Shown: piece by piece, positions 4,518 through 55,400 of the stretch
Position numbering within the stretch: position 1 is the stretch's first letter
Layout: every line of letters begins with the position of its first letter
Assembly: GCA_905178155.1 (NCBI GenBank)
Contig: CAJINV010000024.1
Location: 286,515-350,514 of the forward strand
DNA from: Amoebophrya sp. A120
Taxonomy: Eukaryota > Protista > Dinoflagellata
Reading direction: 5' to 3'
Length of the DNA: 64,000 bases
Position numbers and translations under genes: made by a program
The notes under the pieces: model-generated
Database searches by the model: none
Told to the model about the DNA's origin: nothing
What the model saw: only the letters and a program-made list of their open reading frames with translations

Positions 4518-7500
4518 GAATTAGAGACTTTCCCCAGTTATGATAGATACCGGGGGTGGGGCGCCGCTTATCATCCTGATACCACGAAAAGGAGCTTCCT
4601 GCACAACCAGCTGCGGTTCCGGCCGCCGAATAAGATTATGAGTTGCAAAAGTATCGGCTACTAGTATAGATTGCAATACAAAAAATTGGGTCACGCAGCG
4701 TTGTAGATTAAATTTGTAATGCGGATTTCCCTGAACAACTAGATTTGTAATGCATAAGGCCTGAACAACTAGACTTCTCATGCTCGGGAAATTTGTAATG
4801 CGTTTGTACGAGTACGATACTTCTGCAATGCATAGGAAGTCCAGCAAGTCCATGAAACTGTCAAAGTAGGCACCATTTTCATTTTCGCTATATTCTTCAG
4901 AATCGGCAAAATCAGAGTCAGAACTGCCGCTGCTGAAGTCCTCTAAGTAATCGTGTATTTCCCCATCTCGTACCTCTACCTGTTCTGGCGCCCCCTTCGC
5001 GTCGTGGTTCCCGTCAGTGTCAACACCAGCTTTGGGCTCTCCAGCGTCGTCACCAGCACGACCTTTCTCTTCCTCATTCGCCGCAGGAGCTACAGTGGCT
5101 TCCTTCATAATATCCTTCGCAGCCTTCTTCTCCGCATCCTTTTTCGCCTTTCTCTCAGCGGTTCTAGCCTTTTTAGCCGCATTTTTTTTCTCTTCCATTT
5201 CCCGCTCCAGGAGGTCCTCTGCCGCTGCTTCTTGCAATTTCTTGTCTTTGAAATCCAAAAACTCTTCGAAATGAAGCTTCAACTGTTTCATTTTCGGAAT
5301 CTTCTCGGCTTCGAACTCTTCCCTCTGTTCCATCAATTGCTTCAAACCGTCGAGCGATAGAGGTTTGATCCTTTGGAACTGCTTATCGGTAACCTTGTTC
5401 TTCAGCATGACATGAAGCGCTAGTTTCTGCGGAGGCGGCTTGCGTAGCAAAGCGAAAAGTCGCTTCTTCTCCTGCTCGACTTGTTTTCTCTTCTCTTCTT
5501 TCTCGCTTCGTAACGCGATCTGACTGGCGGTTTTTTCTTTGTCTGAGGAATCTTCACCTTCGGACGAGCGACCATTTTCATCATCATCTCCATCGCGGTT
5601 GTCCCTCTTGCGGGCGACTTTGGAGCCGATTTCTAGTAGTTCTTGTTCCACGCTCTGTGGTTTATTTTGTCCTTCATCTCCGTGGTCTTCATCTTCTTTT
5701 TCGTCTTCGCTGCTTCCTGGCTGGACTCGCTCTTGCTCGATTTTTGAAGTCGTGGCCCTCTGGCAGCTCCCGGAGGTGGTCGTCGTGGTCACCCCGACCT
5801 GGTCCTCTATTTGCCACCAATTCTTCTCGTAATTCCATTTCCACTCCACGCCGTCTGGTAAAAGCGCATTGTCTTCTCCGACATTTTTCCCAGTACCTGC
5901 GTGTTCCTGAAACTCCGAGGACCGCCACGCCGCATGGTTTTCGGAAACGACGAGTTCCTCCGTTGGCCTTGGCTGTTTGTGTAGTTTTTCCACTCTCGCG
6001 GAGCGGTTCTTGTCAGCGGATCGTCGTCATCCGAGTCGCAATCAGAGACGAAAAAGTCGTGACCGCGTGAAGGGTGGCGGTTGTTGACAACGGGCGGATC
6101 AACATTCAGGTTGTTCGCCTGCTCGTCCATCTTCGACGCTAGATTGTGCTGCTCCACAGAGTCGCCAGCCATGGTGGCGCCAAGACTTAAATTCAATTTG
6201 AATTTGATATCAATGGATCAGGAACTCGTTTTTGAAATTCAAATCTGTGATGGGATGAATCGCGATGTCCAATGAGAATGACCACGCTGTGCTTTTTACA
6301 ACATCTTTACCTAATCCTAGCACATAGACATCATACGATAGCTGCGGAAGCTGCCCTCATATAATCTTTTCTTCTTTTGTAGTTGTTTGTCCATTACTAC
6401 TACATCTTCATCCGCTAGGCTAAAAAGAAGGAGAAAATGTAATGCGGATTTCCCTGAACAACTAGATTTGTAATGCATAACTGCAAATTTAGTACGAGTT
6501 GTCGATCCTTTTGCACTGCATAAAGATCCGCTGGTTTCCCGGACTAGTCGGGTTCAGATCTACAACTGGGTCGCCTGCGTCTCCCGTGCAGCAGCACATG
6601 CGAGGCTGTAGTACTACGTCTCGTCCTGCGGGCAGAACCGCCGAGGGAGATGAGCCTGCTCGTCGTGAGGCAAGCTCACGAAGAGCTATGAGTGTGCCTT
6701 CTGGTGGTCTTCCCGGAGATAGTGGTACAACGAGAACGAGGAGTCGGAGGAGCTCCCCCAGAGGCAAAAAACCATCTTCGGGCTGCGGCACCGTGCTGAC
6801 GCTGCTGTCGACGGCGCGGAGACTGAAATCGGCGGCGGAAGTGGAAGAGGAAAGTTCTGAGAAGGCACACAGAACTTCTACACATGCAACTGCTGTGGCC
6901 ACCAAAGCAGGAAAGAGCCACGCAGAAGTGCTGCCACCCAAGATGAACGGGCACCAAAGCAGTGACCGGTATGAGTACGGTCTGCTGATTCGGCGGTTAT
7001 GCAATGCAAAAGCATCGCACTAGTATAAATTGCAGTACAAATTAGCCCAGCCTACAAATTGAATTTGTAATGCTGGTTTACCTTGAGACAGAGATCGCCG
7101 CAAGGTCGCAGCGCGGGGACTCTGTCCCCGCGCCATGACCTTGTTTGTGATGCATAAACGCGATTGCTACGAGTGCGATACTTTTGCACAGGATAGCGGT
7201 GGAGGCTGGACGAGGGTGACGAGAAGAGCAAATCCTTCCCCTCCGGGTATGCCCTGGAAGAGTATCTGCAGGAGGAGCCGCGCCGAAGATCATCGGAAAC
7301 ATCCGAGCGGAGCGTAAGTGGACAATGTGACACGACGCAGGAGGCAGCAGATGACGTCACGGGCCTCCTGCCCGAGAAGCATGGTCACAGTAGAAGCCAC
7401 GACGATGATCATATCGTCGCAGGCAGCGGTAAAATAACGCAACGAAACACGGAAGAAGGCGAAGATCACGCCTCCCTAGCGGAGATCACGATAGCCAGAA

Positions 7501-10500
7501 ATGATCCGCCGTACAGGGCCACGAGCGCGAAGATGACAGGAGGTCGGGGAAAGCCAAAACCAAAACGCCACGAAGTACCAGAGATCGATGCTGGTCGTGC
7601 AAGACCAATCGACAGGGAAGAGGACGCTGCCACACTGCTCGACGCGGAGGAGGAACAGCGCTTCCTCGAGGGAGAGGAGGACGAGCATGGTTCGGAGACC
7701 GAGCGTGATCATGCGCAAAACCAGAAGTATATGTCACAAATGGAAATATATCAGGCGCGCCTTTATAAAGAAAATCGAAATGGCCCGTCAAATTCACCCA
7801 CAAATGGCAATGCAAATAGCGCACAGATGAGCTACAGCAGAACACCACAAGCCAGAGATAACCGAGCAGACGGAGGTGCAGAAAAAAGTGGGCGCTCGGA
7901 GTCAGGTGGCCATGGCCAGGCTGCGGCTGGAACGACGAACAGATGCGAATCTACTTCGCAGAACGACGAGGAGGAGGAGGAGACCATGCTACAACGCAGT
8001 AGCCAGTCGGTGGCCTTCATCCCGTTCGGAGCGCGACTACAAGAACGAGGACAGCATCAACGACAGACACAGATAACCGAAGATGCTGCGGTCGTCGATA
8101 CAAAAACCGAAGCTGCAGCTGCTGCTTCTGAAAAAACCGCATCTGTCGAGGAAGTCGCGATCCCCATGGCGCGGGTCGGGTTTGCGGCGGACGTGGCGAC
8201 GAAAATCGCAAGGCTAATCGCCAAACACGCAGGTGAGCGGGAAAAGGACGGGGTGCTCAACTGGATCGGGAATGAAAGCCGCGACCAGGCAAATCCCCCG
8301 ACAACTGGAGATCATGGTCGGAGAGGTGCGGAAAAATATAGTCGTGGTGCGAAGGACGACAAGAGTTCGAAGAACGCGGAACACGAAGATCCGGAGGCGG
8401 GTGAGGCTGCGACCGGAGGTGCAGCTTTGCCTCGTGGTAGGAAGAACGACCCGATCGGGCAGGAGGACAACGCCTTTGGTACACCGGAGCAAGAAAATGA
8501 CCGCCGGGAGCACCACCACGGCGACGTAGTAGACCCCGAAAAATCATACTCTTCGTCCTTCCACTGCCTCAAAGGCCCGAACTGCCTGTTCCGTAATGTC
8601 TGCCTGAAGGGATTCACCTACGACTCTAGCATATACATTGCAAAAGTACTATGACTACCGTGCAACTTCGTGCGTGAATTGCAATACAAATTTCATTTCC
8701 AAATAAAAAGAAGAAACGCAAATTGTGATGCTGAGTCGCATCGGGCTACCAATCTGTCATGCATGATTGCAATTACTACGTAGGCGGTACTAGGAGTACT
8801 TTTGCACTGGATACACCAACCCACTCGACGATTTCCGATCCAGAATACGGGAGGTGCATTTCGAGTACTTTTTGCCCGAAGATGACACGACTTCCGCTGA
8901 AGTGGACGATGTATCCTGTGCAAAAGTATCGCACTCGTATAAATGCAATACAAATTTCCTCAGCATGAGAAATAAAATTTGTAATGCAGATTTTCGTTGG
9001 AAACAAGATTTGTAATGCAAGACTTGCATTTGTACGAGTACGATACTTTTGCAAAGGATACGATGACCACTCCCACGACGATTGGGAGACCCACAGCGAT
9101 GCGGATACACGGTACATTTTTCAAAATCTGTATCTGATGCCAAATTATCCAAACATCATTCCCAATCTCCGCCACCTGGTGGCGAAAGCGCGGTTTCACC
9201 GGGCGCGTGGTGCTCCCGGGAAGCGGCGGCTCCAAGAACGGGGCAAGAGGGCGCTAGGTTCAGGACGACATCCAGATGAAGTTGTGCATCCTCGCGGTGC
9301 TCTCGCCGATTCCTCGAAAAGCACTCCCAAAACCGCCGTCTTCGTGCAGCGTGCCGGCGGGTTCACACACAACGTCGGCCACGTGATTCTTGACGAGATT
9401 CTGACGGTGTTTCAGGCCATGCTGAAGCACGATAGAATCGGAAGCGACGATCGGGAGATCCAGATATCAAATGCAAAAATGTCTGGATGTCTAGCAACTT
9501 GTGTTGCTGATACTTGAATTGCAAACTTGCTGCTTGTACTGCATAACAGCATGAGAAATTTCGCGGGGCTTATTCCAAATTCATTCGTATTTAGCATGAC
9601 AAAGTACCATATTCCGCACGACAAAAAAACTGGCCAATGGTATTCATGCATTACAGATCTTTTTGTCCTTGAAGTCCTGCATCACAAATCCAGGTCCAGA
9701 CATATTTGCAGTGCATACCAGATTCTACTGCACGAAAAGCAGTCCATGAACATCAATGCGTTCGCGCAGCTGCTCGCGACCACGCCCGGTATTGTGAGGA
9801 AAAATGTCCCCACCCCAGAGTTGTCATGCAAGCCTGCATGCGAAAAACGTTTCTCATGCGGAGCCCCATGAGAAGCATTTTCTATTCGTCATTGGGAATT
9901 TGTGATGCTAGAATCATCATAGTATTGTGGATCTGTGATGCTTCTCCTGAATCAGCTAAACAGGATTACACTACGGAGACAAACTTGTCATGCGAAATAA
10001 CCAAATCTGGTGGATTTGTCTACGCTGATTTCGCATCTTGACTCTGGTGTGGGGACGTTTTTACTCAGGATACCCGGGAAGACTACTTCATCTACACCCG
10101 CAGGTGGTTTTACCGGCGCTTCTACCGCTGCTGGTGGAACTTCCAACGTTTTCGACTGGACGGACATCGATTTGACCACCGAAGTGGATTTTTCTGCACC
10201 CGCTTTGAAATCGTCGGAAATAAAAGTTCACCGTTGCTTTCCGGAGCTCATCCTCGGTTGGGCCCGGTTCCAGGGCTACTGGCACTTAGGGTTTGCCGAG
10301 CTGCAGCAGTACTTTCTGCTTCCAAGACACAGCATCATATGACAGTGCACAACTTCCCATCGTCCCCCTCATTTGTATAGCATGAACGCCAATACAAGCA
10401 TTAGCAAGAGTGCCGGCTTTGCATGACAACGTTTGCACTGGAGTGTAGTCCTATTTTGGCGGCTACCAGCAGAACTTGTCATGCATAAGAGTGCCAAGAG

Positions 10501-13328
10501 GAAAAGAGTGGATTGAGTATTTTGCATGAGAAATGAGGGGGAACGGGAGTTCTTGTGCACTGTCACACATCACCGCGGGCATCCAGAAGTACCAGGACCT
10601 GCTGAAATTCAAGGAGTACGTATCGTGAGGAAAAAACTGTGTAAGTGTAAATCTGTGATGCAGAACATGCAACAGAGTTACGCCTGTCATGCCAGACAGC
10701 CACGCAGTCCTCTTTTCATGTGTGTTTTCCCTAATCAACCACGCATGACAGGTTTTCTCTGTCATGTGGAGCAAATTTGTGATGCTGTCAGCCAAAGAAA
10801 GTTACACTAACACAGTTTTTTTCTTGGATATTACGTGTGGCGGAGGTTTGGGATTGCGAAGAGGGAGAACATATCCTGAGTAAAAACGTCTCCTCTCGAT
10901 TCCTTTCTGAAAATTCGAAATTTCTCTGTGCTTTAAATTTGGTCTTTTCCAGTACATAAACACCCCAGAGTTGTCATGCAAATCTACATGCTGAAAATGT
11001 TTCTCATGCGGAGCTCCATGAGAAGCATTTTCTAGTCGTGTTTTTCAATTTGTCATGCTCCAATCAGCATGGTAAGCTAGATCTGTGATGCTGCTGAGCT
11101 AGCTCAAACAGCACTACACTACGAATCCAAATTTGTCATGCAAAACAGCCAAAACTTGCGGATTTGTCTAGCCGGTTCCCCATCCTGCCTCTGGTGTGAG
11201 TACGTTTTTACTCAGGATAGAACAAAGAACGGGATTATGCCGGCGCGGGCGGGGTACTGGTTCCTGGTGCAGCATCTTCGACAAGAGCTAGTGCGCCCCC
11301 TACTTCCGTGCTGTACAACATTACCATCGTGCTGAAAAACCGGCATTCCGCCGAAAACTGCTGCGTCATGACCAACGCAGACCAACTGAAACGGTATTTG
11401 CTGCGAAGGTTCTTCAGGAGTAAGAGTTCAGGAGCCACCAGCACCGCTGCAGGACCAACTACATTCCGCGAGGACACGGAAAGAATGAAAGATGTTGCAC
11501 CTGTTCCTACGTCGCATGGCTTTCAAGTTGAAGAATTGTCTGGGCTGCAACTACAGCGCGCAAGCATCGACCAAGTGCTGCTGCTCAACTGGTCGGATTT
11601 GAAGGGCAGCTGGCAGAAGCAAGTGGAGGTTATGGCGTACACGGATATTCTGCTATCCTTCCCCGGCGCGGACGTCTGCAGCTCGGTGTTTATGCCCACA
11701 GTGAGTGGCTTTATTCTCCCCGATCGACTGCTGGGCTGGGCGCCAGAGGAAAAAGACACGCTCGAGCTGGTGCGGCAAGACGTCAAGCAGGAGAAGCGGA
11801 AGCGAGGTCTGAGCGAACAGAGCCACGAGGTGCTGCAAGTGGACGCCTTTGGAAAAATCGTCGTGAGCAGTAGCGGCGGCGGCGAGAATTCGCAAGGTCG
11901 TCGTAGTGCTCTGCATCAGAAGCTCAATCTCGAACAGCAGGTGAAGCTGTTTTACCAGCGCCGGTTTCACCGCTTTTTGAAGGTGACCGCGACCTCCAGT
12001 GCAGTTGAAGAGGAACAATTTGGGGAGGATAGTGGGCAGTTTCCTGCGGGTAGTCCAGGCGAGAGCGCAGGATCCCCCACTTCCAGCGTCGTCGACTACA
12101 TGCGGCAGCATTTGCAGTATCAAATGCAAATATGTCTGGGTCTGGAAGATTGCAACTTGTCATGCTAAGTCTGAATCAGGCAAAAGACTGTGTTGCATGA
12201 TTGCCAAAAGCTGTGCACTTTTGACCTAATCGAGAGGCAGTTTCTCATGCAGGATAAGCATTGGAAAGGTAAAGGTTATTTCGCAGAATCTGTCATGCTA
12301 TGTCCTGCATACCACACTTCATGGGTTATGGAAAATCTGCATCACAAATCTAACAATCTTCCAGACCCAGACACTTTTGCAATCCATATGCAGCAGCACG
12401 AGGTGAATTCCCACGGAATCTCGGCCAAGGGTTGGGAGGGCCTTGGCTTCATCGACATGGTCTTCACGCACCGGCTACCAAATGTAAAAATGTCTGGGTC
12501 TGGAAGAATGCAACTTGTCATGCTAAATCTGAAGCATCCATAAATGTGTGTTGCATGATAGTACCAAAAGTCGTCCAGTTTTGACCAAGTCGGGAGGGTG
12601 TTTCTCATGCAGGATGGGCATGAGAGATATAATCGCCCGGAATCTGTCATGCTAGGTCCTGCATTCCAGACCTCATGGGTCATGGAAAAGCTGCATGACA
12701 AATCGCGAATTCTTCCAGACCCAGACATTTTTACATTTGATACCGGCCCTACCTCAACATCAAGCTGATGCCCCAGTACGTGGCGGGCGTCACGTATGAA
12801 AGTGCACAACATCCTGTCCCCCTCATTTGTCATGCAAATTGCCAAATCCAAGCTGTGCATTTTGGCAGTGTCTGCATGACAAGTCCTGGTACTTAGCCCA
12901 AACAGCACTGCAATCCAGTGTGAATTTGTCATGCAAAACCGGCACTCTTGCTGATGCTTGTCTTGCCGTTCATGCTATACAAATGAGGGGGAGGGGGAGT
13001 TGTGCACTGTCATATCACGAACACCAGCGTGGCGCGGCCGACGTTCGTTTTGTCGCCGCGAAAATCGGTCTTCGAGCAGGTGCCCTCGCCGCGGGACCGG
13101 CACAGTACTGCGGAGTTCGACAACGTCATGTACCGGAAAGCCAACCCGTCCGCGGTGATTCCCCCGGAGTTTCCGCACGAGGAATTTTTCCGCTACGAAT
13201 CGGTCATCAACGGCAGCATCTTCTGGCCGAAGAACACGGTGATCCGAAATGTCCATCAGGGCGGCTTCCAGAAAATCGGCGACCTCGTGGAGAGTCTGCT
13301 GGACTACTTTCAGCGGATCAAGGGCTGA
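4518..13328 (+). CDS. Glycosyltransferase family 61 (DUF563)-like protein, 5' end unresolved, 12 inverted-repeat introns
   Basis: Removing each element + 5 nt gives one open frame: ...RPPNK|IRWFPG...LIRR|WRLDE...CLFRNVCL...HNVGHVILDEILTVF...EIQ|ILLHEK...RCFPELILG...QVEVMAYTDILLSFPGADVCSSVFMP...QRIKG*. Motifs resemble GT61; family assignment is by eye. Confidence 0.75.
4637..6522. mobile_element. Composite introner family C (1886 nt) carrying a captured antisense gene fragment
   Basis: Left TIR TATGAGTTGCAAAAGTATCGGCTACTAGTA, right TIR TACGAGTTGTCGATCCTTTTGCACTGCATA, perfect flanking DR AAGAT; extra internal right TIR ending 4834; 43-nt duplication 4715-4757 = 6438-6480. Confidence 0.8.
4835..6172 (-). 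pseudogene. Captured 5' fragment of an acidic/coiled-coil protein gene inside an intron
   Basis: GCCACCATGG start at 6172 (MAGDSVEQ...), frameshift near 5995-6025 into the E/K-rich ORF 4521..5993, truncated at an introner half at 4834. Confidence 0.65.
6998..7195. mobile_element. Introner family C
   Basis: TATGCAATGCAAAAGCATCGCAC...GTGCGATACTTTTGCACAGGATA; DR GCGGT. Confidence 0.9.
8632..8813. mobile_element. Introner family C (diverged)
   Basis: TATACATTGCAAAAGTACT...AGTACTTTTGCACTGGATA; flanks TAGCA/CACCA; +5 removal in frame. Confidence 0.85.
8912..9060. mobile_element. Introner family C
   Basis: TATCCTGTGCAAAAGTATCGCACTCGTA...TACGAGTACGATACTTTTGCAAAGGATA; DR CGATG. Confidence 0.92.
9465..9717. 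mobile_element. Introner family A
   Basis: TATCAAATGCAAAAATGTCTGGA...TCCAGACATATTTGCAGTGCATA; DR CCAGA. Confidence 0.92.
9790..10072. mobile_element. Introner family B
   Basis: TATTGTGAGGAAAAATGTCCCCACCCCAGAG...CTCTGGTGTGGGGACGTTTTTACTCAGGATA; DR CCCGG. Confidence 0.92.
10338..10567. mobile_element. Introner family D
   Basis: TATGACAGTGCACAAC...TTGTGCACTGTCACA; DR CATCA. Confidence 0.9.
10621..10830. mobile_element. Introner family B-like (diverged)
   Basis: TATCGTGAGGAAAAAACTGTGT...ACACAGTTTTTTTCTTGGATA; flanks GTACG/TTACG. Confidence 0.85.
10872..11219. mobile_element. Introner family B with ~70-nt insertion in left TIR
   Basis: TATCCTGAGTAAAAACGTC[insert]CACCCCAGAG...ACGTTTTTACTCAGGATA; DR GAACA. 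Confidence 0.9.
12118..12388. mobile_element. Introner family A
   Basis: TATCAAATGCAAATATGTCTGGGTCTGGAA...TTCCAGACCCAGACACTTTTGCAATCCATA; DR TGCAG. Confidence 0.92.
12476..12742. mobile_element. Introner family A
   Basis: TACCAAATGTAAAAATGTCTGGGTC...GACCCAGACATTTTTACATTTGATA; DR CCGGC. Confidence 0.92.
12795..13014. mobile_element. Introner family D (opposite orientation to 10338)
   Basis: TATGAAAGTGCACAAC...GTTGTGCACTGTCATA; DR TCACG. Confidence 0.92.
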
Positions 13329-14257: not shown

Positions 14258-16928
14258 ATGGCAACACCAGGTTCTGCGGATCATGCGCAGTCCTCGAGGC
14301 CGTTGGAGGTTTCTCCTGCGTCCGAACGGCAGATGTTGATCGAAGCTCGCAAAAAATTGCAAAAGCAGGTCACAGACATGGAGCAGCACGCGGAAAATCA
14401 GCGGGGCCGCTTCAACGCGTACCAGCAACTGCACGCGAAACGCCTCGACTGGCTGATATCAACTGTAAAAGTGTCTGGGTCTGGAAACTTGTGATGCTGG
14501 GTGGCGCATGATTGAAGCGCTTCCAATGGCAGCCAAGCATGACAAGTTTTTGAGAGGCCTTCTGATGCCTAGCATGCATGACAAATTGCGTTTTTGCATG
14601 ACAAAGAAAGCTTCTCTTTTGCTGCTTATGCAAGACAGATTTTCCAGGAATGCATGACACGCATTACAAGTTCCACTTTTCCAGACCCAGACATTTTTAC
14701 ATTTGATAGCTGACGGCGTTTTTCAAGACCGACATGGTGCTGCTCGACATATGGCACAACTGGAACGCGCAGTTCGACAAGATTGTTGGATTAGTGGTAG
14801 CCCTCGACAAGTCGTCGGAAGAACAACCGCAAGAACAGGCGGAAGAAGTAGTAGTACCAGACGAAGATAGGGCGTATTTGAATCAGATGACTGCAGGATC
14901 TTCTTCATCTGCAACAATGCGAACAAACCCACACGCGGCCAGTTTGATGTTCCGGCGTGAAGGTGGATATAATAAGAAGAACGTCTGCGATTTATTGCGG
15001 GGTAAAATACTGACCACTCCCCGGAAGATTTTCGCGGAGTTGCGGATGGGAATGGAAGAGTCGTTGCACCAATCCACGACACAGCAAGAACTTGGCGCAT
15101 CTTCAACTGCGGTCACGACCAAGACAGTAGACCGACTCTACCCCGCCGACAACATTTGGCGGCTCGACAACTGGCTGACCGTCGACGCCCCGGAGGCTTC
15201 GTCGAAGTTGCATTCGGCGATACAAAAAACCACCGACATTTGGCTCAAGGAAAAAGGTCCCGTGTTCTGGGAAAAGTGGACTGCGTTCCAGAAGGCTGCT
15301 CAGGGCCTTCTGGGCAAGGCCCGGGAGTTGCAAACTGCGGAACGCGCTCTGCTGGACGTCGAAGTGCGGGGCCGCAAGTACGCTGAAATTCTACAACTTC
15401 CAGAAGATGATCCCTACGAAGTGCAGCGCGCGCTCGAGAAGGCGCTCGGAGAGAAATCGCGAGCGCTGCGGGACGCGCAGTGGAAAAGTGACAAGCACAT
15501 CATGTTGCTCGAGGAGTCTTTGCAGCGGCGCGGCAAAGAGGTGGAAAAGTACGCTTTGTTGGAGGTTAACATGCAGTACGAACTGCAGGCCGCCGCCGCC
15601 AAGGTTTCGGCGTACGAGCAAGAATTACGGACGCACAGACGCAACGCTGAAGCCGTGCGACAACGCGACCTGGACGTGGAGGAGTTCGAGGTGACGAAGC
15701 TCCGGAAGTCAGCCTTGGAAGACGACCTAGCCCGGGAGAATGACCGGAAAAATGTGCTCGTGGACAAGTTGCACGACTCGGAGCAGGAGAAGAAAATGCT
15801 GGAGCAGCGGGTCGCCGAGTTAACACGAAAATTGGAGCGAAAAGTATGAAGTACAAATATCGATCTGGGTCTGGAAGATGGATGCAATAAACCTGTCATG
15901 CAGAATTTTTATGCGCGACGATGTCTGGAATTATGCAGGACGAAGCATGACAGACTCCGCGAGGTCTCCGTCTCTATCATGCCTAGTATCCTGCATGAGA
16001 AACTCCCTCTCATGTTGGTCAAAAAAAGGCAACCTTTGGTGATCACGCAAGATGACAGATTTTTGTGTGACCCACTACAGGACGCATACCAAGTTCCATC
16101 CATCCAGACCGAGACATATTTGCGATGCATAAAAAGCCAAGCTCGACGACGTTGACGCGCATTTGGAAAGCATAGGCTTCGGTCAGTGCGAAATCTGCTG
16201 TGACGCGTACGTGGCACAAGGTATGACGGTGGCACGTGGTCCAAACAAGTTGTAGCCTGCTGCGGTCCAACGCAAACGGATTAGATGGCTTTGTTGCATG
16301 ATTTTTGTTTTTTATGCAGATCTTCAGCACAGAATGAACTTTCAGTGTCAGCAATAACCACCTGGCATGTTGAATGAATGTAGGTAGCCAAAATCCGTTC
16401 GCAAAAGGCACTACAGCTTGTCACGAGTAATTTTTCCTCGGCACGACGCACGTGAACCAACGGCCGATGTGCTTCTCCTGCGGCCACGGAGCGTGTGCGA
16501 GCTGCGTGGACCTTCTGCGGGGGTGCGGTCGGGATCTGTGCCCAAAGTGCCGCGAGCCGGGGGTACTGCAGGATGCAGTCGTGAATTACGGACTGGAGGC
16601 CGCGCTAGAAACCCTGGGGCGGTGCGCCGTCCCTGCACCTCCGTCGCGCAGTGCCGAGTTGGCGACGCCGACCTTGCCCATGGGGCGTGGCCAGCTGCTA
16701 CGAACCTTTGCTCGGAGATTGTGTTGCCGACAGACGCTGAATGTTCTCGCCCTGATAGTGGGTTGGGTGTGGGACCATGCCTGTGCCTTATGGTGTTGTT
16801 TCTGGCTCGCTGCTGTTTCTGGCTCGTCAGCGATGTGTTGTTTCTGGCTCTCGGTGTTGTTTCTGGCTTTCGCTGAATTGTTTGCTTTAAGTACCCTGAC
16901 TATAATTCTTGAAGCGGTCACGGTTTAA
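14258..16928 (+). CDS. Coiled-coil + C3HC4 RING finger protein with hydrophobic C-terminus (putative E3 ligase), 3 introns
   Basis: Spliced frame MATPG...DWL|TAFFK...LERK|AKLDD...CEICCDAYVAQ|GTTHVNQRPMCFSCGHGACASC...CPKCR; third intron ~16221-16440 is a hairpin GT...CG intron. Confidence 0.8.
14457..14708. mobile_element. Introner family A
   Basis: TATCAACTGTAAAAGTGTCTGGGTC...GACCCAGACATTTTTACATTTGATA; DR GCTGA. Confidence 0.92.
15845..16131. mobile_element. Introner family A (diverged)
   Basis: TATGAAGTACAAATATCGATCTGGGTCTGGA...TCCAGACCGAGACATATTTGCGATGCATA; DR AAAAG. Confidence 0.9.
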
Positions 16929-22630: not shown

Positions 22631-22786
22631 TGCAGGGGTCCGACCAATCGGCCAAACGGATATATCTTTTCAAACGTATATTTTTTTCAAACGAATACTT
22701 TTGCGATATTTTCGCCAATTCCTTGCCTTTTTATGCTTTTGGTTTCTCTTTTTCTCTTTTTCTTTGGAAGTGCGGAGCCCGCGCGT

Positions 22787-41500: not shown

Positions 41501-42856
41501 CCGGGGGGCCAGCAACTGCCCCCCACCAACCGCGAAGTAGAACACCGGCAGAGCTGCGACCCACCGTGGCTGCGCCCGCACCTTCCTCCGCGAAGCCAAA
41601 AGACGCTTGCGTCACGACCTTCGAAAAGGCGCTGGAAGCGAAGCAGGCACGACTGACGTTCTCCGTGAAGAAAGATGGGAGTGAACAAAAGAGTACTTCT
41701 GCTGGAGAGGGAGGACCAGAGCAAGCGCTTCCCCCGGATGAACACGAAATGCTACAAACAGTACCACGAAAGGAAGTAGAAGACCCCGCGCAAGAAAACG
41801 AAGACCTTCTGCTCCCGAGACGAGAGATCCACCTGCAACTGCAAGTCATCACGACTCAACGGCTGGAATTAACGCTGTTTGGCCGACGGGTTCCGGACCT
41901 GATCACCGTGTGTCTTGGCCTGGCTTCGGACTTTGGAATAGACCATGATTGTAATCTATGGATTGCAAAAGTGTCTGGGTCTGGAAGATAGCGAGATTTG
42001 TCATGCTAGTCTCGCATGACCAAAAAGTTTGTGATGCGTGTCCAAGAAGAGACCCTTTTGCCTGTCATGCAAAAACGCAGTTTGTCATGCGAAAAACGCA
42101 ACACAATGAAGCGCAGACGTTTCTCAACATGCTTGGCTGTGCATCACAGAGCATTTACTATTCCCAGCGCAGCATTACAAGTTTCAAGACCCAGACATAT
42201 TTGCATTTGATATAATCCGGGAAAGAAGATCAGGATGAAGAAGCCACAAGCACTGCGGCTGGAAGAGACGCGGGCAGCGCCGGCGGGAGGGGAAGAACAG
42301 AAACGAACGGAAGCAGAAGAAGCAGAAAACACGCGTGGTGGTCAACAGCATCTTGAACAACCACCACCACCGCCGCGGATACCACCACCGCAGCGCATTC
42401 GGAAAACCACCACCGCCGCGGATATTCTGGCGGCCTCCGGGAAGAAAGGGTTGTCCCCGCCTACAAGTAAAACAATTAGCGAGTTGCCGGCGGGGGTGAA
42501 GTATCCTGTGCAAAAGTATCGCACTCGTAAAAATGCAAGTCTTGCATTACAACTCTTCTTCTTAAGGTAAACCCGCATTACAAATTTTATTTCTCATGCT
42601 GAGGAAATTTGTAATGCATTTATACGAGTACGATACTTTTGCAGTTCATATCAAGGGGAAGAACTTCTACTGTGTTGAAGTGGACGAGGTGATGTGGTGC
42701 GAAATTCCACTGAATGGCGAATTTGCGGACCAGAGGTTCAGCAGTGCGGACGGGAGTAGCATCAACACGCGTTATGGGGTGCCGTTAGTTTTCGATGGGT
42801 TGACAGACCATCCGGGAGCGCGGAGTACGGAGAAGAAGAAGAAGATTCTGGCTTGA
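35532..42856 (+). CDS. Hypothetical protein interrupted by 14 introners (5' end uncertain)
   Basis: Continuous frame after +5 removal at all 14 sites: MYQAHT|NFS...QGD|RLDEQ...LPA|GPVDW...LSG|KADM...LP|EDAF...RA|ARFGNHQYQ|AAL|VNAF...YP|PNH...KTS|PAA...GLS|LRR...RP|DVF...CN|PGKK...GVK|GKNFY...KILA*. Confidence 0.8.
35551..35859. mobile_element. Introner family B (diverged)
   Basis: TATTACAGTGAAAAGTGTCCCCCACCCCC...GGGGGTGGGGACATTTTTCATTGTGAAGATA; DR CACCA. Confidence 0.88.
35917..36385. mobile_element. Introner family A with duplicated left TIR (35917 and 36092)
   Basis: TATCGAATGCGAACATGTCTGGGTCTGGAA twice, one right TIR ...GACACATTTGCAAGCCATA; outer flanks GATAG/GACAG. Confidence 0.85.
36579..36830. 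mobile_element. Introner family A
   Basis: TATCAACTGTAAAAATGTCTGGGTC...GACCCAGAGACTTTTACTTTTGATA; DR CGCGG. Confidence 0.92.
37195..37460. mobile_element. Introner family A
   Basis: TATCAAATGCAAATATG...CATATTTGCACCGGATA; DR GTGGG. Confidence 0.92.
37536..37788. mobile_element. Introner family A (opposite orientation to 37195)
   Basis: TATGCATTGCAAAAATGTC...GACATATTTGCAATGCATA; flanks GCCGG/TCCGG. Confidence 0.9.
37873..38199. mobile_element. Eroded introner, family B-like
   Basis: TATCAAAAGGAAAAATCC...GGCATTTTTCATAGTAACA; flanks GCAGC/GCATC. Confidence 0.75.
38231..38512. mobile_element. Introner family B
   Basis: TATCATATGGAAAAACGTCCCCACCCCAGAG...GGGGACGTTTTTACTCAGGATA; DR CCAGG. Confidence 0.92.
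38531..38726. mobile_element. Eroded introner, family C-like
   Basis: TATGTGTGGCAAAAGCATATCGCA...TGCGATCATGCTTTTGCATTGCATT; flanks GTGGG/GTAAA. Confidence 0.75.
39185..39446. mobile_element. Introner family A
   Basis: TATCAACTGCAAAAATGTCTGGGTC...GACCCAGACATATTTGCAATGCATA; DR TACCC. Confidence 0.92.
39638..39907. mobile_element. Introner family A
   Basis: TATCAAATGCAAAAATGTCTGGG...CCCAAACATTTTCGCACTTGATA; DR ACCTC. Confidence 0.92.
40540..40821. mobile_element. Introner family B (opposite orientation to 38231)
   Basis: TATCCTGTGTAAAAACGTCCC...GGGACGTTTTTCCTCAGGATA; DR CTCTC. Confidence 0.92.
40879..41059. mobile_element. Introner family C (diverged)
   Basis: TACGCAGTGCAGAAGTGTCGTACTCGTAA...TTACGAGTACGATATTTTTGCAACGCATA; flanks CAGGG/CAGAC. 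Confidence 0.85.
41957..42212. mobile_element. Introner family A
   Basis: TATGGATTGCAAAAGTGTCTGGGTC...GACCCAGACATATTTGCATTTGATA; DR TAATC. Confidence 0.92.
42502..42650. mobile_element. Introner family C (opposite orientation to 8912)
   Basis: TATCCTGTGCAAAAGTATCGCACTCGTA...TACGAGTACGATACTTTTGCAGTTCATA; flanks TGAAG/TCAAG. Confidence 0.92.
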
Positions 42857-43888
42857 TGGATTCAATTGGCATGACAAACTGCCATAGTTTCAACCTGATC
42901 GGATTAATGATGATGTTTTTGACGTTCATTGGGATCCAGATTTACGCATGACAAACCAGCACCCGTCTGGGTACGCTTTTGCATTCTGATTGCACTTTTT
43001 CTTTTTCTATTCGTGCGTCTAATTGCAACTGCATGACAATAAACTTGGACGACAGCCAGAATTTTTCTACTTGATACAAGAAGCTTCTCTGGAGGAGCAC
43101 GACGCAGTTATCATGTGAAAGGAAGGGCGACGCACAACACGGTTGTCATGCGGAAACGAGATTGTCAGTTATACGAAATAATCTCGGTGATGTGTCTCCG
43201 CATGACAAATCTTATGTGCTATTGCTGCTTTGTTTCGACTTCATAATGGTCGTGGTGCACACGGACGGTACGGAGTCGCATATCAAAAACAAAAATAACT
43301 GGGTCCTGATCGAAGTCGCAATGTTGTCATGCTAGGTCAAGGTGAAAACAGAAAGTTGTCGTGCATGGACACCGAATGTTCTTCATTTTTCTAATGCATA
43401 ATCCGTATTCATCAAAATCAGACTCAGAGGCTGAGCGTGCATGCCAAACCACCTTACTGGTCGCGCAGAAGGCGCTGCGTCAAAAACATGCGTCTTCCCC
43501 CCAGAAGGATCCAGACCAGTTCTCACTGCATATCACGAGTGGTGGTGCAGCTCATGAGGGTGAGGCGGGATGCGTTCAGCCGGACTACGCAGGTCGGCGC
43601 GTTTTAGAAGAACTTTTTCTTCCGACACAACAGTGTCCAAGCTGCAATGGCTTTACACCAGTGAACAAAACTACCTTTTCGAACCTAGCGAAGGTGTAGA
43701 AGGAGAACGCAATTGAGTCCAAGCTGTCCATGATCTCGAGAGCCAACTCATGAAATCATCTTTTGAAAAATTGAAGTACGTCCTCGCAACCGGCGGAAAC
43801 TTTGTGACGAAGAGACCAGGTGGGGCACGCAACCGTGCTTCTACGCATATAGACTTCTGCGTCATTGTGAGTACGTACGTGGTGCTGA

Positions 43889-46415: not shown

Positions 46416-46849
46416 CGAGGACGAGAAGAGAGCTACAGATAAACACTGCGGCAGCGACCAAAAGCGGAAGGGATCGCTCATCATTACCTCATCCTGATAT
46501 CAGCATTGCGGAACTTCTGCAAACGGCTCTTCCGCCACTCTTGGGCCCTGAGGTCGCGGCGGGAAAGAGGACATCTTTCAAGAAGCTGCAAGTTTGTGAC
46601 GCGGAAGCGGATCGACGAGCCACAGCCAGAGTATTTTTCTCTTTGGGAAGAACAAGACGAGCTTCATGTGTGGCGCGGTACTCCGGCACGCCCCCCCCCG
46701 CAGGTGAGACTCGGGTCTGTTTGTGCGCAGCAAGTTTTTCCCGTCCCGTTCCGGGCGTGAGACTGAATCTGCGCGCTTGGTGCCCGGTGCTTCCGCCTTA
46801 ATGTCGAAAGAAAGCGCCGCAGCCTCAGCGTCGCTTTTTGCCCTGCTGC

Positions 46850-49710: not shown

Positions 49711-50336
49711 GAGGAAGGTTTTGAGCTGTTCGAGGATTGCTGTGATGAGTGATCAAAAGCGGTGAAATAAACCTGAGAAAAAATGTGACCCCCCAATGTT
49801 AAACCGTCTGAACAAAGGCAGGAAGGCCGCACCATCATCGATTCGTTTCTTCGTCAGAAAGAACGAACTCGTGCATGTGCAAGCAATTTTAGTATTTTCC
49901 CGTCAAAAAACCGCAGATTGAGATTTCGAGTTGGATTTCAATTTCAATTCCCTTTCATTTTTCCAAACTAGAACCACCTACCACACAGGGTCGAATAGAT
50001 GATATAAAGAAGTCGTCATTTGCCAAAGCTACTAACGACTTTTATTTCCGCGGACAGTCGAACTGTAGAATTACATCTGTTCGCAGAGCAACTTGTTGTG
50101 GAAGATAGCTCTGGCCGCACACGACGTCAGCGTATCCCGGATCTAGCGTGACCGGGTGGACGAATCTATTGGACAGCTTCTTAAATCAGGGTTGCCGGAA
50201 ATCCTGTACGTCGTACCCTTCGAACAAAGCCGAGCCCCGTGTCCTACTTCTACTGCAGGGCGGTGCGCGCATCCAGCCCCTCAACATCTTCTCCTGAACA
50301 ACTTCGGAACTTTTCGTGTCCTCCACGCCGGGCGAA

Positions 50337-52302
50337 ATGGCGGAGCGGCCTCCCAACGGGGAAGAACAGCACAGTTCTGGACGCGAGTTGTCCGGCTCCG
50401 CGGCAGCCCGACTGTTTCTGAAAGTCCACAAACGACAGCAACTCAAGGACGCGGAGACCGCGGCGCGGGCGAGTGGAACAGCAGCGGCGGATGGGGAATG
50501 CGTTGTCGCTGCAAGAAGTTGCTTTGGAACTGCATCGCCCGACATCAATCCACTGGGCAAGTCGCATGAGGAGCAAGACCAGTCCGTCATGTTTCACCAG
50601 CAAGAACAGTTGCAAACGGAACTGCAGTACAACCCGCCGTTGCGGCGGGAAAACGCTTCGTCGAAGACCAGCTCGTCCGGGAGCCGCGGCGATACCCTGA
50701 GCACAGGAACAGCGCAAGAGAATACCGGCCCGTCCAACAGTAAGGAAAACAGTACCTCCGAAGATACTGCTGGCGGGACTGATGCTCTTGTCCTCGACGA
50801 AGGCCATTTTCAAGTGGCAAACGTTCCGAGAAACGACCAGACGGCGCCCTTGCTACGGTTGCACGCTGCTGGAGCTCCTGCTGGATCCGAGCGGGTTCGC
50901 TCCGAGCTCCTGCTGGACCACAAGTTTACTCCCTCCTCCTCATCTTCCTCTTCATCGAGCGGTGTTCGCGGAGGCGGCGTGGAGGTATCATGTGTCGCTG
51001 GCTGCGAAGTATCAAATGCAAATATGACTGGGTCTGGAAACTTGTAATGCTGGGTTGGGAATAGCAATAGAAATAGTGAATGCTAGCTCTGTAATGCACA
51101 GCCAAGCGTGAGAAATATGAATACATGCGCTGCTTAGTGTTGCGTTTTTCGCAAGACAAGCTGTGTTTTTGCATGACAAGCACAAGGGTCTCTTCTTGGA
51201 CACGCATCACAAACTGTTCAGTCATGCCAAACAAGCACGACAAACCTTGGAGCCTTCCAGATCCAGACGTATTTGCATTTGATACGAAGTCGTTCCGGAG
51301 GGGGATCCTGGTCTACTCCCGGTTAGCAACGAGCTGCCACCAATACGGGTCGTGGAGAAGCGGCACTCGCAACAGCCGGCAAGCGGCAGCAAATCCGCAA
51401 TGCAGCAGGATTATGGCGATGATAAGGCGGCCGCGGCTTCGGGCGGGTTTTTTCCAGCACAACTCGCGGAAGGCAACAAGTTTTGGCAGCAAAATTCGTC
51501 CACGCCGAGATTTTCGGCGCTTGCGGGAAAGCCGTCTACGGACGCACAGAACGATCCCCAGGTCATGGGCATACGCGAGTTTATCGGCGAAGTCGACAAC
51601 GATAGCGAGGGGGGAAAGGATGGTATAGCGTTACTGGGTTTTTTTGATGATAACAATCACTGTTGTTGTAAAAGTTCGATGCTTGTGGAAGTGAAGATGC
51701 CGAGACCTCTTGTCTTCACTCACCATCGCAAGCTGAAGTGGCGCTTCGCGTTTGGTCATGCGGAATTCGTTCTGTGCGCTGAGTGCCCAGTTTGTAATGC
51801 TGATAGTTAGCGACTCAAAAATGAGTCTATCTGGACTCGTTTTTGCAGTGTCCGCATTATGTGCAGTTTGTAATGCTGACACGGACTCAAAAAAACGAAT
51901 TCGAGTCGCGTTGGACTCGTGTCTGCGTAGGTTGGAAGTTGTGTCGCACTCACTTTTGACTTGCTGTACCAATGGAGCGAGTTGAAGGGGCAACATGATC
52001 TCGCACTTGATCACATATCACAATCATGGTTCTCAGGTTCCGCTGTAGTTGCCCTTGCTCAGGAACACCAGCGGCCGGCTTTGCCCCCAAGCGGTCCAGA
52101 GTGCTACCCGCCGCAAAATGCGCTGCAGCATAACGGAATCGACGAACAGCAGAGCAGTGGCAGCAGTAGCATACCGACGCTATCGCGTCGCCCCGCTTCG
52201 GTACCTCGTCAAAACATGCCAACTCCCTGCAGCGCCATGCGTACTGTATTTGAGCTAGAGCTTCGCTGTGTGATGAGAAATCTACTTCGAGCGCCGGCAT
52301 GA
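50337..52302 (+). CDS. Hypothetical low-complexity protein; one introner plus a probable second intron ~51624-51930
   Basis: MAERPP...GCE|VVPEGD...GKDG|SCVALTFDLLYQW...; second junction inferred from GATGG/GTTGG flanks. Confidence 0.6.
51010..51284. mobile_element. Introner family A (opposite orientation to 41957)
   Basis: TATCAAATGCAAATATGACTGGG...CCAGACGTATTTGCATTTGATA; DR CGAAG. Confidence 0.92.
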
Positions 52303-52425
52303 TGATTTTGTCTCGTTGCGCGGGCGCCCGTTCTCGCATCACTAGTTAGCTTCACTATGGGACGACATCAATGTTCAGACTTTAGTTATGGTGTATGGGG
52401 GAGGAATGACGATTTTTTTTTCTGA

Positions 52426-55400
52426 TGCGCCGACTCGTCGTCGCGGCAGGACCACAATAATCCCCAGGGACACGGCGACGACGACCCCATTTTTCCTCCA
52501 GGCTTGGGTTGGACGCAACGCAAAAATCTTGTGGCTCTGCAGGTGAGATGAACTGTTTGGCTTTAACTTTATTTATCAGTACAACAGAATAAATGATTGC
52601 GATGAAGCGAGATGTAAATGTCTTTGTCTCCTTTTGTACTTGTATGATCATGGGTGCAGGTGCAGCCTGGATGACAACACCAAAACCAAAAGTTGCCGGT
52701 GAAGATGCGCGTTTCAGAATTACTTGTCGATCCAAAATAAATTGAGGTGAACAACGGTCTTCGAGCTCCTGAGGTGCCTTTGCCGAACGTGCCGGCCGTT
52801 GTTGCTAATGCTGCTCTACTGCCTGAGCCTGTCGCCGCCGGGGCCGCACCGGCACCTGCGCCGGCCATGCCAGATCGGAACGTGCGTCCCGTACCGCCCC
52901 AGGATTCATTTGCTCGTCCCCTGAACTACCAGCTGCCTAGCAACCACCCGCTGCGGCAGAACCACCAGTGTCCACCGCCGGGGGCCCACCAGCCGATGCC
53001 GATGGTCGGAGACGGTGGGACGTTGAACAACGCGGGTGGAGTTGTTCCCGCAGTCGTCGTCCAGGAGAACAACGGGCAGAACGGTATGAACTGCATAATA
53101 TCTTCCCTGGATGTCTGGAAGATTGCAAGTTTTGTCATGCTAGTCTGGCATGACTCTGAACTCTGTATTGCATGCCGGCGAACTAATAGAAGTCTCTTGT
53201 CTGTCATGCAAAAACGCGGTTCTTATTGTGATGCGGAGTACGCAACTCTTAGCCACGGAAAAACTTGTCATGCTGGGGAGCGCATTACGGTGTGCTCACT
53301 ATTCCCTTTTTTGCATCAGAAGTTTCTAGACATCCAGGGATATTTGCAATGCATAAACGTGGTGGAAGATCATGAACAGGTACAGCATGAAGGACTTCCT
53401 CCCGGTCCTGTGCAGCCAAACCTCCCATCCCGTCCGTTTGACAAGATCCGCGCTTTGCTCCACGATGATGCTGCGCCGCGGAACCACGGGGGGCTCGACG
53501 GGGTTCTTGATGCAAATCGTGCACCTGCTGCAGCGGCTCCTATCCCCAATGCCATCGCGCCGGCTGCCGGCCGCGACCACAGAGTATCAAATGCAAATAT
53601 GTCTCGGTCTGGATGTATCCATGGATTTTTCATGCTAGATTGGTATGACACGAAGCTTTGTATTGCGTGGCTACGAAGTACAGCTCCTCTGGTCGCCTTT
53701 TTCATGCGGAATACGGAACACAGAACCACGGAGAAATCTGTCATGCTTGGTGCAGCATTCCTCCAGGGAGCTTACGACTCACTGACCTGCATCACAAATG
53801 TCCAGACCCAGCAGACATATTTGCATTTGATACAGAGTGCTGTGGGAGGACGATGACGACGCCGCGGACAACTACCCGCGTCCGGATCGATACGACGACC
53901 TAGAAGACGACAGCATCCTGCTCCCCGACTACGGACCCGCTGACATCCGCGTGGGGGCAGTGCTGGCCCGCGGAGGCTTCGGCGTGGTGTACGAGGGGGA
54001 GCTTCTGGTGGGTAGTCCGGATGGTTTACAGCGGCTCTCGCACCTGGAAGGCCAGGAACGCGGCGTAAAGCAGCTCGCGTTGAAGCAGCACGCGGACGAC
54101 AAGCGGGGCGTAGGACGCTGGTTTCGCGACGAACTGGAGATCGCGCAGGAGATCAACCGACTCGGCGGTAATGCGGCGATTCTGCGCGCCCACGGAAAGT
54201 TTGTCGACGCAGAGGAGAACGCGTACATTGTGCTGGACCAGTTTCCCACCGGGAACCTCGCGGAACTCATCGCCACGAAAAGCACCGACGTGTCGATGGA
54301 GCGGCGGATCTCCATTTTGCTCCAAATTGCAGACGCGGTGATCTTATGCATTGCAAAAGGATCGTACGAGTTAGTATGAATTGCATTACAAATTCATAAT
54401 TTCGGAGGAACAAAAATGCTTTTTGTCATGCTATTTTAGGTAGGAAATTGAATTTGTCATGCATATTGGCAATGATAACGAGTGCGATATTTTTGCAGAG
54501 GATAAGCATTCCTGCACACGCACAGCATAGTGCACCGCGACATCAAGCCGGAGAACATTTTGATGACGAACGAGTGGTCTTTATTCTGAGCAAAAACGTC
54601 CCCACCCCAGAGTCAAGATGGGAAATCTGCTAGGCAAATCAACCATCTTGGTCTGTTTCGCATGACAAGTTTGTCCTCGTATTGCTTTTTTTAATAATCC
54701 TGTTTATTTTGATAGCTAGCCCAGCAGCATCAGGTTCAGGCATGCATATTTGCATGACAACTCTGGTCGTGTGGGAATATTTTTACTCAGGATAGTCCCC
54801 GCTGCTCGGCGACCTCGGACTGGCGTGCAAGGTGGACGGGACGAACCACCAATTCGACGAGGGATTCTGCGGTACGCTCGGCTGGTCATACGCGGACTAC
54901 GGCGGTTGGCAACTATGATGGTAAAAATAAAAAAGTCGTGTTTAGTGTGACGCTGTGATGCAGAGCTGTGTACTCGAACAATTTTACGATTTGTTATGCC
55001 AGACACGCATGAAGTGCTCTTCCTTTTGCTTTTCATCGTATATTTTCTTTCTATTCTACTAGCTGTGCATAACGGAGACTGTCATGCGGAGGAAGTTTGT
55101 CATGCTGGGACTCGACGAAGACAACCACAACTACACTATACACAACTTTGTTTCCCTTGCATAGAAGCCCCCCAGGAGCTACTACCTCGACGAATATTCC
55201 GTCGCGATGCTGGCGGGGTGGCTCGTAAGTGAAGAAAAACCGCGGGGGAAGCCGCAAACACCGATTGCGGGATTCTTGAAGAGGATCAAACCGGTGGTGG
55301 CCTGGGACCCGCTGTTTGCGTCGTTCCTGCTCCGCTCGGCAGAACTCCTCGTCAAGGACCGGCTGACGCTGACGGAGCTGCAGCCGGACCTCGCGCTCCT

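Follow-up and report, generated by a model that had tools for sequence, protein, structure and literature searches.

Transposon-like introns in five genes of Amoebophrya sp. A120: removal register and candidate signals in the terminal repeats

The window analysed here comprises 64,000 nucleotides of the forward strand of Amoebophrya sp. A120 (contig CAJINV010000024.1, positions 286,515 to 350,514). Its genes are interrupted by short elements that are bounded by terminal inverted repeats (TIRs), flanked by a 5-nt direct repeat (DR) and removed as introns. The system is the published A120 introner class and not a new one (Farhat 2021, PMC7789003), as the initial annotation had recognised; the new and testable detail lies in a fixed register of removal and in the evidence for linear signals in the repeats.

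Host genes and the elements that interrupt them

Five host genes were delineated:

4510..13328, +: host gene 1, 1417-codon open frame after removal of 12 elements; start not assigned; one stretch weakly GT61-like
14258..16900, +: host gene 2, coiled coil and a Cys/His pattern of RING type; approximate 3' end
30175..33589, +: host gene 3, after removal an open frame of 1039 codons from stop to stop
35532..43607, +: host gene 4, annotated A120 protein P0002, 1199 aa, 17 introns
50337..55665, +: host gene 5, corresponding to the annotated A120 protein kinase P0001 (1010 aa); 9 introns, including 2 plain GT-AG ones

Two window exons match single Amoebophrya sp. A120 proteins at 99% and 100% (P0001, P0002). 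Element removal had been said to rebuild kinase, RING and GT61-like motifs, and this holds for the kinase, whose PF07714 domain scores above its cut-off, with HRD past the 54345 junction; the GT61 match in host gene 1 is weak (E 0.036, 14.8 bits vs a cut-off of 27), and the RING pattern of host gene 2 needs one more, non-AG intron. This intron is probably 16221-16449: none of the 13 in-frame 3' ends is AG, and 16449 alone has TTT at -17..-15.

An unbiased inverted-arm scan and a nearest-neighbour scan for ends gave 36 listed elements, from 4637 to 55163, and three extra decayed copies were revealed by the annotated proteins (42826-43076, 43109-43245 and 52202-52427), so that the 37 counted initially are about right or slightly low. 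The elements follow, with the two DR copies separated by a slash where they differ and with the basis of each intron:

4637..6522, +: long element, 1886 nt, DR AAGAT perfect; predicted intron 4636-6526, on frame alone
6998..7195, +: DR GCGGT perfect; predicted intron 6997-7199; DR and frame
8632..8813, +: DR TAGCA/CACCA; DR and frame
8912..9060, +: DR CGATG perfect; DR and frame
9465..9717, +: DR CCAGA perfect; DR and frame
9790..10072, +: DR CCCGG perfect; DR and frame
10338..10567, +: ACA end, DR CATCA perfect; DR and frame
10621..10830, +: DR GTACG/TTACG; DR and frame
10872..11219, +: DR GAACA perfect; DR and frame
12118..12388, +: DR TGCAG perfect; DR and frame
12476..12742, +: TAC start, DR CCGGC perfect; DR and frame
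12795..13014, +: DR TCACG perfect; DR and frame
14457..14708, +: DR GCTGA perfect; DR and frame
15845..16131, +: DR AAAAG perfect; DR and frame
16222..16445, +: probable decayed element in the RING motif, without DR and with ACG as its 3' triplet; predicted intron 16221-16449, GT..GC
32623..32912, +: DR TGCTG/TTCTG; DR and frame
35551..35859, +: 3-nt insertion in right end, DR CACCA perfect; annotated intron 35550-35860, rule predicts 35550-35863
35917..36385, +: second, internal left end at 36092, DR GATAG/GACAG; protein
36579..36830, +: DR CGCGG perfect; protein
37195..37460, +: DR GTGGG perfect; missing from RNA-like contig; protein
37536..37788, +: DR GCCGG/TCCGG; missing from RNA-like contig; protein
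37873..38199, +: ACA end, DR GCAGC/GCATC; register 4 or 5 by protein
38231..38512, +: DR CCAGG; sole GT..AG of the 36 in the fixed register
38531..38726, +: ATT end, DR GTGGG/GTAAA; intron 38530-38730, register 4 uniquely; RNA contig and protein
39185..39446, +: DR TACCC perfect; contig and protein
39638..39907, +: DR ACCTC perfect; contig and protein
40540..40821, +: DR CTCTC perfect; contig and protein
40879..41059, +: TAC start, DR CAGGG/CAGAC; intron 40878-41063 (GT..GA), register 4 uniquely; RNA contig
41957..42212, +: DR TAATC perfect; protein
42502..42650, +: DR TGAAG/TCAAG; protein
42826..43076, +: decayed; annotated intron 42825-43080, unique position, 1+4 register, GT..AG
43109..43245, +: decayed; annotated 142-nt intron, compatible with 43108-43249
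43281..43532, +: decayed, DR TCGCA/TCACG; protein
51010..51284, +: DR CGAAG perfect; protein
52202..52427, +: strongly decayed; annotated 231-nt intron that fits 52201-52431 (GT..CC); T-run retained, no stem predicted
53085..53355, +: DR AACGG/AACGT; register <=4 by protein
53585..53832, +: DR CAGAG perfect; protein
54345..54504, +: DR GATCT/AGCAT; RNA contig ends at 54343, which allows register 4 or 5
54582..54794, +: DR GTCTT/GTCCC; register <=4 by protein
54914..55163, +: decayed, DR GCAAC/GAAGC; register >=2 by protein

Apart from the long copy, element size in the window ranges from 149 to 469 nt, and the inverted repeat has the format TAT + 7 variable nt + AAA. Both the terminal triplets (TAT..ATA in 31 of the 36, TAT..ACA in 2, TAC..ATA in 2 and TAT..ATT in 1) and the perfect DR in 22/36 agree with the first description; the total of 22 requires the first element to be 4637-6522 (AAGAT/AAGAT, 1886 nt), and the shorter 4637-4834 was rejected as a stand-alone intron, with no DR and an early stop. 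The repeat is specific to five nucleotides: with 4637-4834 in the 36-element list, k=5 has 21 perfect repeats, k=2 has 4, k=3 has a single one, and k=4 and k=6-9 have none; the cross-paired flanks of different window elements match in 3/1260 cases. The proposed family split of 15/10/8/2/2 was not reproduced; grouping 35 right ends by motif gives 17/8/7/2/1. A subterminal motif, GCAT[GCT]ACA, occurs in both directions with a mean of 3.1 copies per element, 114 of its 132 window matches lying inside listed elements. The last sense copy stands a median of 49 nt upstream of the 3' cut, where it could be a transposase site or a branch-point candidate.

Several observations accompany this inventory. 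Element 35917-36385 has tandem left ends (35917 and 36092) for one right end, and the annotated cut is at the outer, repeat-bearing one. Between two elements, within 38513-38529, lies a micro-exon of ~13 nt that both the RNA contig sum and the annotated protein retain. Two further elements lie outside the range described initially: 751-1078 (AAACA/AAACC), with its right end eroded, and 1102-1409, which lacks a clear repeat. The plain GT-AG intron 51623-52036 holds remnants of an element end and of the subterminal motif (51793, 51869, 52012).

An independent set was obtained by scanning metagenome contigs with a 30-letter end pattern, which located 148 loci in 20 of the 64 parts of the collection; the 80 loci listed all come from assembly JACKZZ01, and 147 loci (418 kb) were analysed. 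Ends were chosen blindly, from TIR positions 4-22 only, with a library of 33 of the 36 window elements and with the terminal triplet and the repeat excluded from the selection criteria. JACKZZ01 elements are ~70-95% identical to their best-matching window elements, and among the 147 loci no host gene or orthologous locus is shared with the window. The blind set reproduces the anatomy: the 5-nt repeat is perfect in 214/314 elements (35 for k=2; 3, 1, 0, 1, 1 and 0 for k=3, 4, 6, 7, 8 and 9), 565/628 ends read TAT, and size is 145-326 nt (5th-95th percentile).

Removal of the elements and the position of the cuts

The elements are lost from RNA together with 5 nt. Evidence at the RNA level comes from an RNA-like contig set, run X3, whose nature as RNA is a guess. 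Its record 9 aligns in four pieces with 0 mismatches, and the skips between them, of 1349, 542 and 473 nt, equal the summed element+5 lengths of 5, 2 and 2 elements. X1 contigs, by comparison, carry elements unbroken (53806-54611), and over 47352-49343, where X3 depth is absent, X1 reaches ~25-45x. The joints read from the RNA contig lie between 35.4 and 42.4 kb, to which the contig end at 54343 is added; no RNA was seen upstream of 35.4 kb, and the raw reads of runs X9 and X11 fall on no exon and reach only short pieces of the TIRs.

The annotated proteins, which may rest on the RNA behind X3 and would then not be fully independent of it, are consistent with element+5 at 20/21 sites. The exception is 35551-35859 (CACCA), where the annotation takes out element+2, in frame as well. 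In the right end of this copy, 3 nt are inserted between T-run and ATA, and the annotated cut still falls 14 nt past TTT; the annotated intron, 35550-35860, reads AT..AC and may be an aligner artefact. Aligners favour AT..AC introns.

Reading frames agree with the same length. Removal of element+5 yields open frames of 1417, 494, 597, 1188, 406 and 421 codons, and among the lengths tried (+0, +3, +4, +5, +6, +7) it gives the longest open reading frame (ORF) at 28/34 sites, the remaining 6 lying close to the ends of the test regions; frames alone define the removal length modulo 3 only. The element+5 rule that the initial annotation called strict stands on exact RNA sums (9 elements), proteins and frames, and has one annotated exception, at 35551. 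In JACKZZ01, a codon-model frame test with separately scored flanks, which had called 10/10 confident cases correctly among 17 in the window, was applied to 151 elements: 36 of 42 confident calls and 51 of 109 weak ones fit +5. The six misfits (L012:2780-3030, L017:4221-4548, L049:4462-4723, L056:433-651, L091:301-564 and L117:301-548) all have perfect repeats and may be insertions in untranslated regions or introns, or wrong calls. Removal of +4 at L046:3166 and L060:4515, indicated by the longest-open-frame test, was rejected on manual reading, which gives a continuous frame with +5; that test is fallible because it miscalled these two sites.

These data bear on the reading that the host genes are pseudogenes, or that the elements leave through nearby cryptic GT-AG sites, which had been named at the outset as what would overturn the interpretation. 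In its favour are the annotated protein of gene 1, which was not retrieved (weak evidence), the lack of RNA seen for that gene, and the 6/42 discordant frame calls in JACKZZ01. Against it, the RNA sums are exact for 9 elements, no more than 1/36 elements can be read as GT-AG in any register, and a nearby AG is unused at 40878; as initially noted, repeats such as TACCC, ACCTC, CTCTC and CACCA allow no GT/GC donor or AG acceptor in any register. For genes 4 and 5 this reading is largely refuted, and overall it is very improbable.

Where the repeat is perfect, the position of the cuts within it is free to slide, and joint alignment places junctions leftmost there; eroded repeats fix the register, as the initial annotation had foreseen. 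At the GTGGG/GTAAA site the RNA piece starts at 38731 and at the CAGGG/CAGAC site at 41064, and register 4 alone (four bases of the left repeat copy plus one of the right) yields both; at the GATCT/AGCAT site the piece ends at 54343, hence register 4 or 5. The protein limits the register at 8/21 sites, to 4-5, 4, 4-5, 0-4, 0-4, 3-5, 0-4 and 2-5; as 4 is the only value shared by all eight, the intron is 1 nt + element + 4 nt. The decayed copy in annotated intron 42825-43080, whose position is unique, again shows 1+4, and intron 40878 reads GT..GA in register 4, leaving unused the AG one base earlier. At the sites able to tell, therefore, one cut is 1 nt upstream of the element and the other 4 nt downstream of it.

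The same junctions speak against a further possibility, namely that reverse transcriptase switched template across the hairpin between the short direct repeats and that no splicing took place. Strong hairpins with flanking repeats are the setting in which such switching occurs, and the RNA evidence consists of cDNA-derived contigs. A switch should land where the two repeat copies agree, in registers 0-2 for 38531 and 0-3 for 40879; the observed junctions, at 4, lie beyond that stretch, which makes switching unlikely; the weakly folding 38531 is removed too, and long open frames depend on removal. This origin of the joints is hardly credible.

Signals at the intron ends and the nature of the machinery

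The bases at the cuts were tallied on elements oriented by a codon model that called the gene strand correctly at 35/35 window junctions (leave-one-gene-out); it oriented 213 of the 314 blind-set elements, and 191 remained once 22 with more than 2 repeat mismatches were dropped. In register 4 their 5' ends read AT in 61 cases, GT in 60, CT in 38 and TT in 32; all 16 dinucleotides occur at the 3' end (5-19 each); the base after the intron is free, with no exon purine rule; GT-AG arises in 5/191, and 47/191 have no GT/GC donor nor AG in any register. A GT-AG reading, in any register, exists for 1/36 window elements, which is not the canonical U2 pattern of GT/GC..AG ends. Two apparent preferences were discarded: enrichment of G at +1 (18/36 in the window) was not replicated (45 vs mirror 48 of 153) and is noise, and drift of the intron copy toward G in eroded repeats amounts to 7 vs 3 (p=0.34). 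In the 26 annotated introns, T+2 occurs in 26, NTA in 25, TTT at -17..-15 in 22, ATA at -7..-5 in 20 and GT-AG in 4, the T+2 and NTA counts being partly built in, since the NTA position was chosen wherever the protein allows sliding. U at +2 is the only invariant base, +1 and the last two bases being free, and removal without reading G+1 or a terminal AG is supported.

Related cores occur in both orientations relative to the gene (59:69, 10:10, 6:6, 2:9 and 2:2, with no inconsistent edge); therefore, the signal that is read must sit in the symmetric ends. The 3' ATA may be missing, as in 38531 (ATT) and 37873 (ACA), which are still removed exactly, and UUU at -17..-15 is retained about as often as the terminal ATA (22 vs 20 of 26). 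The sequence N-UAUG resembles the yeast donor GUAUGU.

The reading that is, on balance, preferred is that a relaxed U2-type spliceosome reads linear signals in the symmetric terminal repeats of the elements, although the machinery itself is inferred. The element would be inserted by a transposase through a 5-bp staggered cut without sequence preference. The 5' cut would be set by U+2 A+3 U+4 of the TAT, which is what remains of a donor once G+1 is not read, and the 3' cut would fall 14 nt downstream of UUU, the complement of the AAA of the terminal repeat. With both signals at both ends, insertion in either direction would create an immediate, frame-neutral intron; a long hairpin would help join the ends in young copies and does not look required.

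The initial annotation held that the machinery measures from the TAT/ATA stem and does not read splice dinucleotides. The second half agrees with the free ends described above; the first corresponds to a non-spliceosomal nuclease/ligase, or to a structure-reading factor of the kind proposed for the nonconventional introns of Euglena, that would recognise the terminal-repeat hairpin and place its cuts 1 nt ahead of the 5' strand and 4 nt past the 3' strand, a serious contender but the less probable one. Young copies do pair in register: over 93 folded elements, positions 11-13 have a mean pairing probability of 0.86-0.89 and the terminal triplet one of 0.61-0.66, and 35540-35870 folds with z -8.3. 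Such a factor would also accommodate the unbiased terminal dinucleotides, the function of both orientations, and the exception at 35550, which is compatible with measurement from the inner stem. The accessible parts of two papers add that U1 is undetected in A120 (PMC7789003) and that Euglena introns lie at a fixed offset from an inverted repeat, their machinery being unknown (PMC12501133).

On the other side stand the lack of any sign of selection on the stem and the removal of copies with no predicted stem. Flipping an element turns G·U into A·C, therefore selection on the RNA stem should favour sense-strand G·U; no such excess, as a sign of RNA-level selection on the stem, was found in the blind set (133:126), the window (35:45) or conserved columns (44:36). 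Annotated introns 52201, 42825 and 43280 have ~zero predicted in-register end pairing and 37872 at most 0.2; 38520-38740 folds like its shuffles (z -0.96), and 37872 and 38530 both fall within an exact RNA sum. At TIR positions 4-7 complementarity reaches only 42-77%, some removed copies lack the 3' ATA, and the retained U+2, A+3 and U-tract resemble spliceosomal signals. A related proposal, which is rather unlikely, is that a non-spliceosomal, possibly transposon-derived nuclease/ligase recognises the TAT-N7-AAA end, reads no terminal dinucleotide whatsoever and makes its cuts at a constant 1/4 stagger in tens of thousands of A120 introns; were it true, an element inserted at any 5-mer, in either direction, would be born as a perfect intron.

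A number of points weigh against the relaxed spliceosome. Indifference to all terminal bases but U+2 is a large departure from the G+1/G-1 pairing of the second step. No lariat, branch point or spliceosome dependence is in evidence, GCAT[GCT]ACA being a candidate motif alone. The RNA evidence for the register is one contig set with two sites unique for it, 6/42 confident frame calls disagree with +5, and the T+2 count of the 26-intron tally is partly a product of register choice. The G·U test is low in power and weak for young families. Conservation does not differ significantly between the 5' end and the 3' end (non-TA in 1 vs 6 of 191 cases, p=0.125; stronger 5' conservation was not significant at any of 24 positions) and may reflect the youth of the transposons and not splicing. 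The UUU ruler depends mainly on annotated site 35550-35860, AT..AC and a possible aligner artefact, and a 1-nt deletion in the 3' end of L017:1125-1273 left the frame unshifted. Finally, T+2 in Table S4 of Farhat 2021 may reflect aligner preference.

A weak lead concerns indels before the 3' A-run, of which only those of 3n length may be tolerated: three surviving cases fit (35551 +3, L017:1833 +3 and L073:3728 +6), one -1 case has no clear fit, and +3 is likewise the length of 4 insertions located past the A-run.

Transposon nature and comparison with known systems

The description of the elements as MITE-like DNA transposons with a 5-bp target-site duplication (TSD) is supported: they are short, TIR-bounded and multicopy, occur in either orientation, share a subterminal motif and have a duplication of constant length (214/314 in the blind set) without base preference. 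The initial annotation had also looked to a long copy with the same TIRs for a transposase, and none was recognised in the one long copy of the window. The long element 4637-6522 has one left end and two right ends (4834 and 6522) that share a 44-nt segment, and contains the following frame:

4845..6172, -: frameshifted ORF in two overlapping frames; no relative; not recognisable as a transposase

The ORF was rejected as a transposase, with no Pfam match, 0 matches among 1.84 billion representatives and no usable Atlas match. The element looks like a capture between alternative right ends and not like an autonomous element; it is composite-like, and gene capture by the element is possible. The TIR pattern gave 0 matches in viral contigs, and an Rfam search of the window 0 matches.

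Elsewhere in the window, 19900-22200 and 44000-49300 are GC-rich and non-coding-looking, with many GCGCGC and A/T-run inverted repeats, the RNA-like run having little or no depth over 44700-50000. Short tandem repeat arrays occupy 3980-4290 (~65-nt units near 4000) and 22400-22630 (CCTTCTTGGCCT-type inverted units).

As far as the accessible text of each source goes, a transposon origin is already in print: A120 introner families are mostly classed as TIR DNA transposons (PMC12130899, dataset file 8), fam38 is annotated 'Ginger, 5-bp TSD, TA/TA Termini', and integrase-like ORFs between TIRs are reported (PMC12130899). Ginger elements have TGTNR termini, in contrast to the TAT of 565/628 ends here, and a 4-bp TSD, so that the unbiased 5 bp fits only the exception of TDD-4/5 (PMC2836005); their Gypsy-integrase-like transposase, reported for fam38 (PMC12130899), was not recognised in the ORF of the long copy.

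The assignment to the A120 introners follows from the host, the TAT-N7-AAA repeat, the 5-nt DR (22/36; 214/314) and families that are removed from RNA. Farhat 2021 (PMC7789003, accessible text and legends) describes in the same organism an inverted repeat of TAT + 7 nt + AAA with direct repeats of 3-5 nt, gives a 5-bp example in the legend of Fig. S19, and discusses the resemblance to MITEs but argues against mobilisation by transposase in A120. Its legends present splice sites as variable relative to the hairpin, with an unknown border and 1-5 nt, whereas a constant 5 bp divided 1+4 is found here; text and legends mention no fixed register, although Figs. 3 and S19-S25 could show a preferred offset. 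Similarly, in 38 of the 58 A120 rows of Gozashti 2025 (PMC12130899), the automated TSDs span 2 to 6 and the calls of splice-site origin disagree from family to family, with no fixed register. The 1+4 register is stated in no paper found by a literature search that reached few subscription papers.

Farhat 2021 also lists T at +2 in all 9 predominant A120 and all 9 A25 motifs (Table S4, PMC7789003), which the fixed register would account for; 'canonical' introns with repeats would arise when the duplication ends in AGG. In strain A25 the repeat starts with TTA and the predominant donors are TT (PMC7789003), and U+2 A+3 may be kept by both strains despite their differing elements. Together with U+2 and UUU at -17..-15, the register gives exact predictions for the lariat branch nucleotide, the closure of circles and the bases to mutate. 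If it holds genome-wide, the element would be a self-contained cassette that splices either way and leaves the exon unchanged at any insertion site, which would account for the extent of the invasion and illustrate the degree to which a spliceosome can become relaxed.

Among other organisms, the nonconventional introns of Euglena, as described in the accessible text of PMC12501133, are alike in having ends at a set distance from a short inverted repeat, in a rule revealed by non-slidable introns and in direct repeats that render junctions slidable. Their signature is N3CDG..CH'GN5-6|R, with offsets of 3 and 5-6, in contrast to N-TAT..ATA-N4 with 1 and 4; unlike in Euglena, the exon base is free here and there is no sign of selection for pairing. 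In Fritillaria borealis, according to the accessible parts of PMC11282704 and PMC13326754, a modified U2 spliceosome removes MITE-derived introns with TIR and TSD, which are like those of A120. The ends that prevail in Fritillaria are AG-AC and AG-AT, and its U2AF is duplicated, whereas A120 ends are unbiased and Table S6 gives one U2AF65 and one U2AF35 (PMC7789003); U2, U4, U5, U6 and most spliceosomal proteins are present in A120, with U1 undetected (PMC7789003). As for U2 introns in general, U+2 and a U-tract before the 3' end are found here in 26/26 (partly built in) and 22/26 introns, and the U2 splicing of non-GT-AG transposon introns in Fritillaria (PMC11282704, PMC13326754) constitutes a precedent for a relaxed U2 spliceosome in A120.

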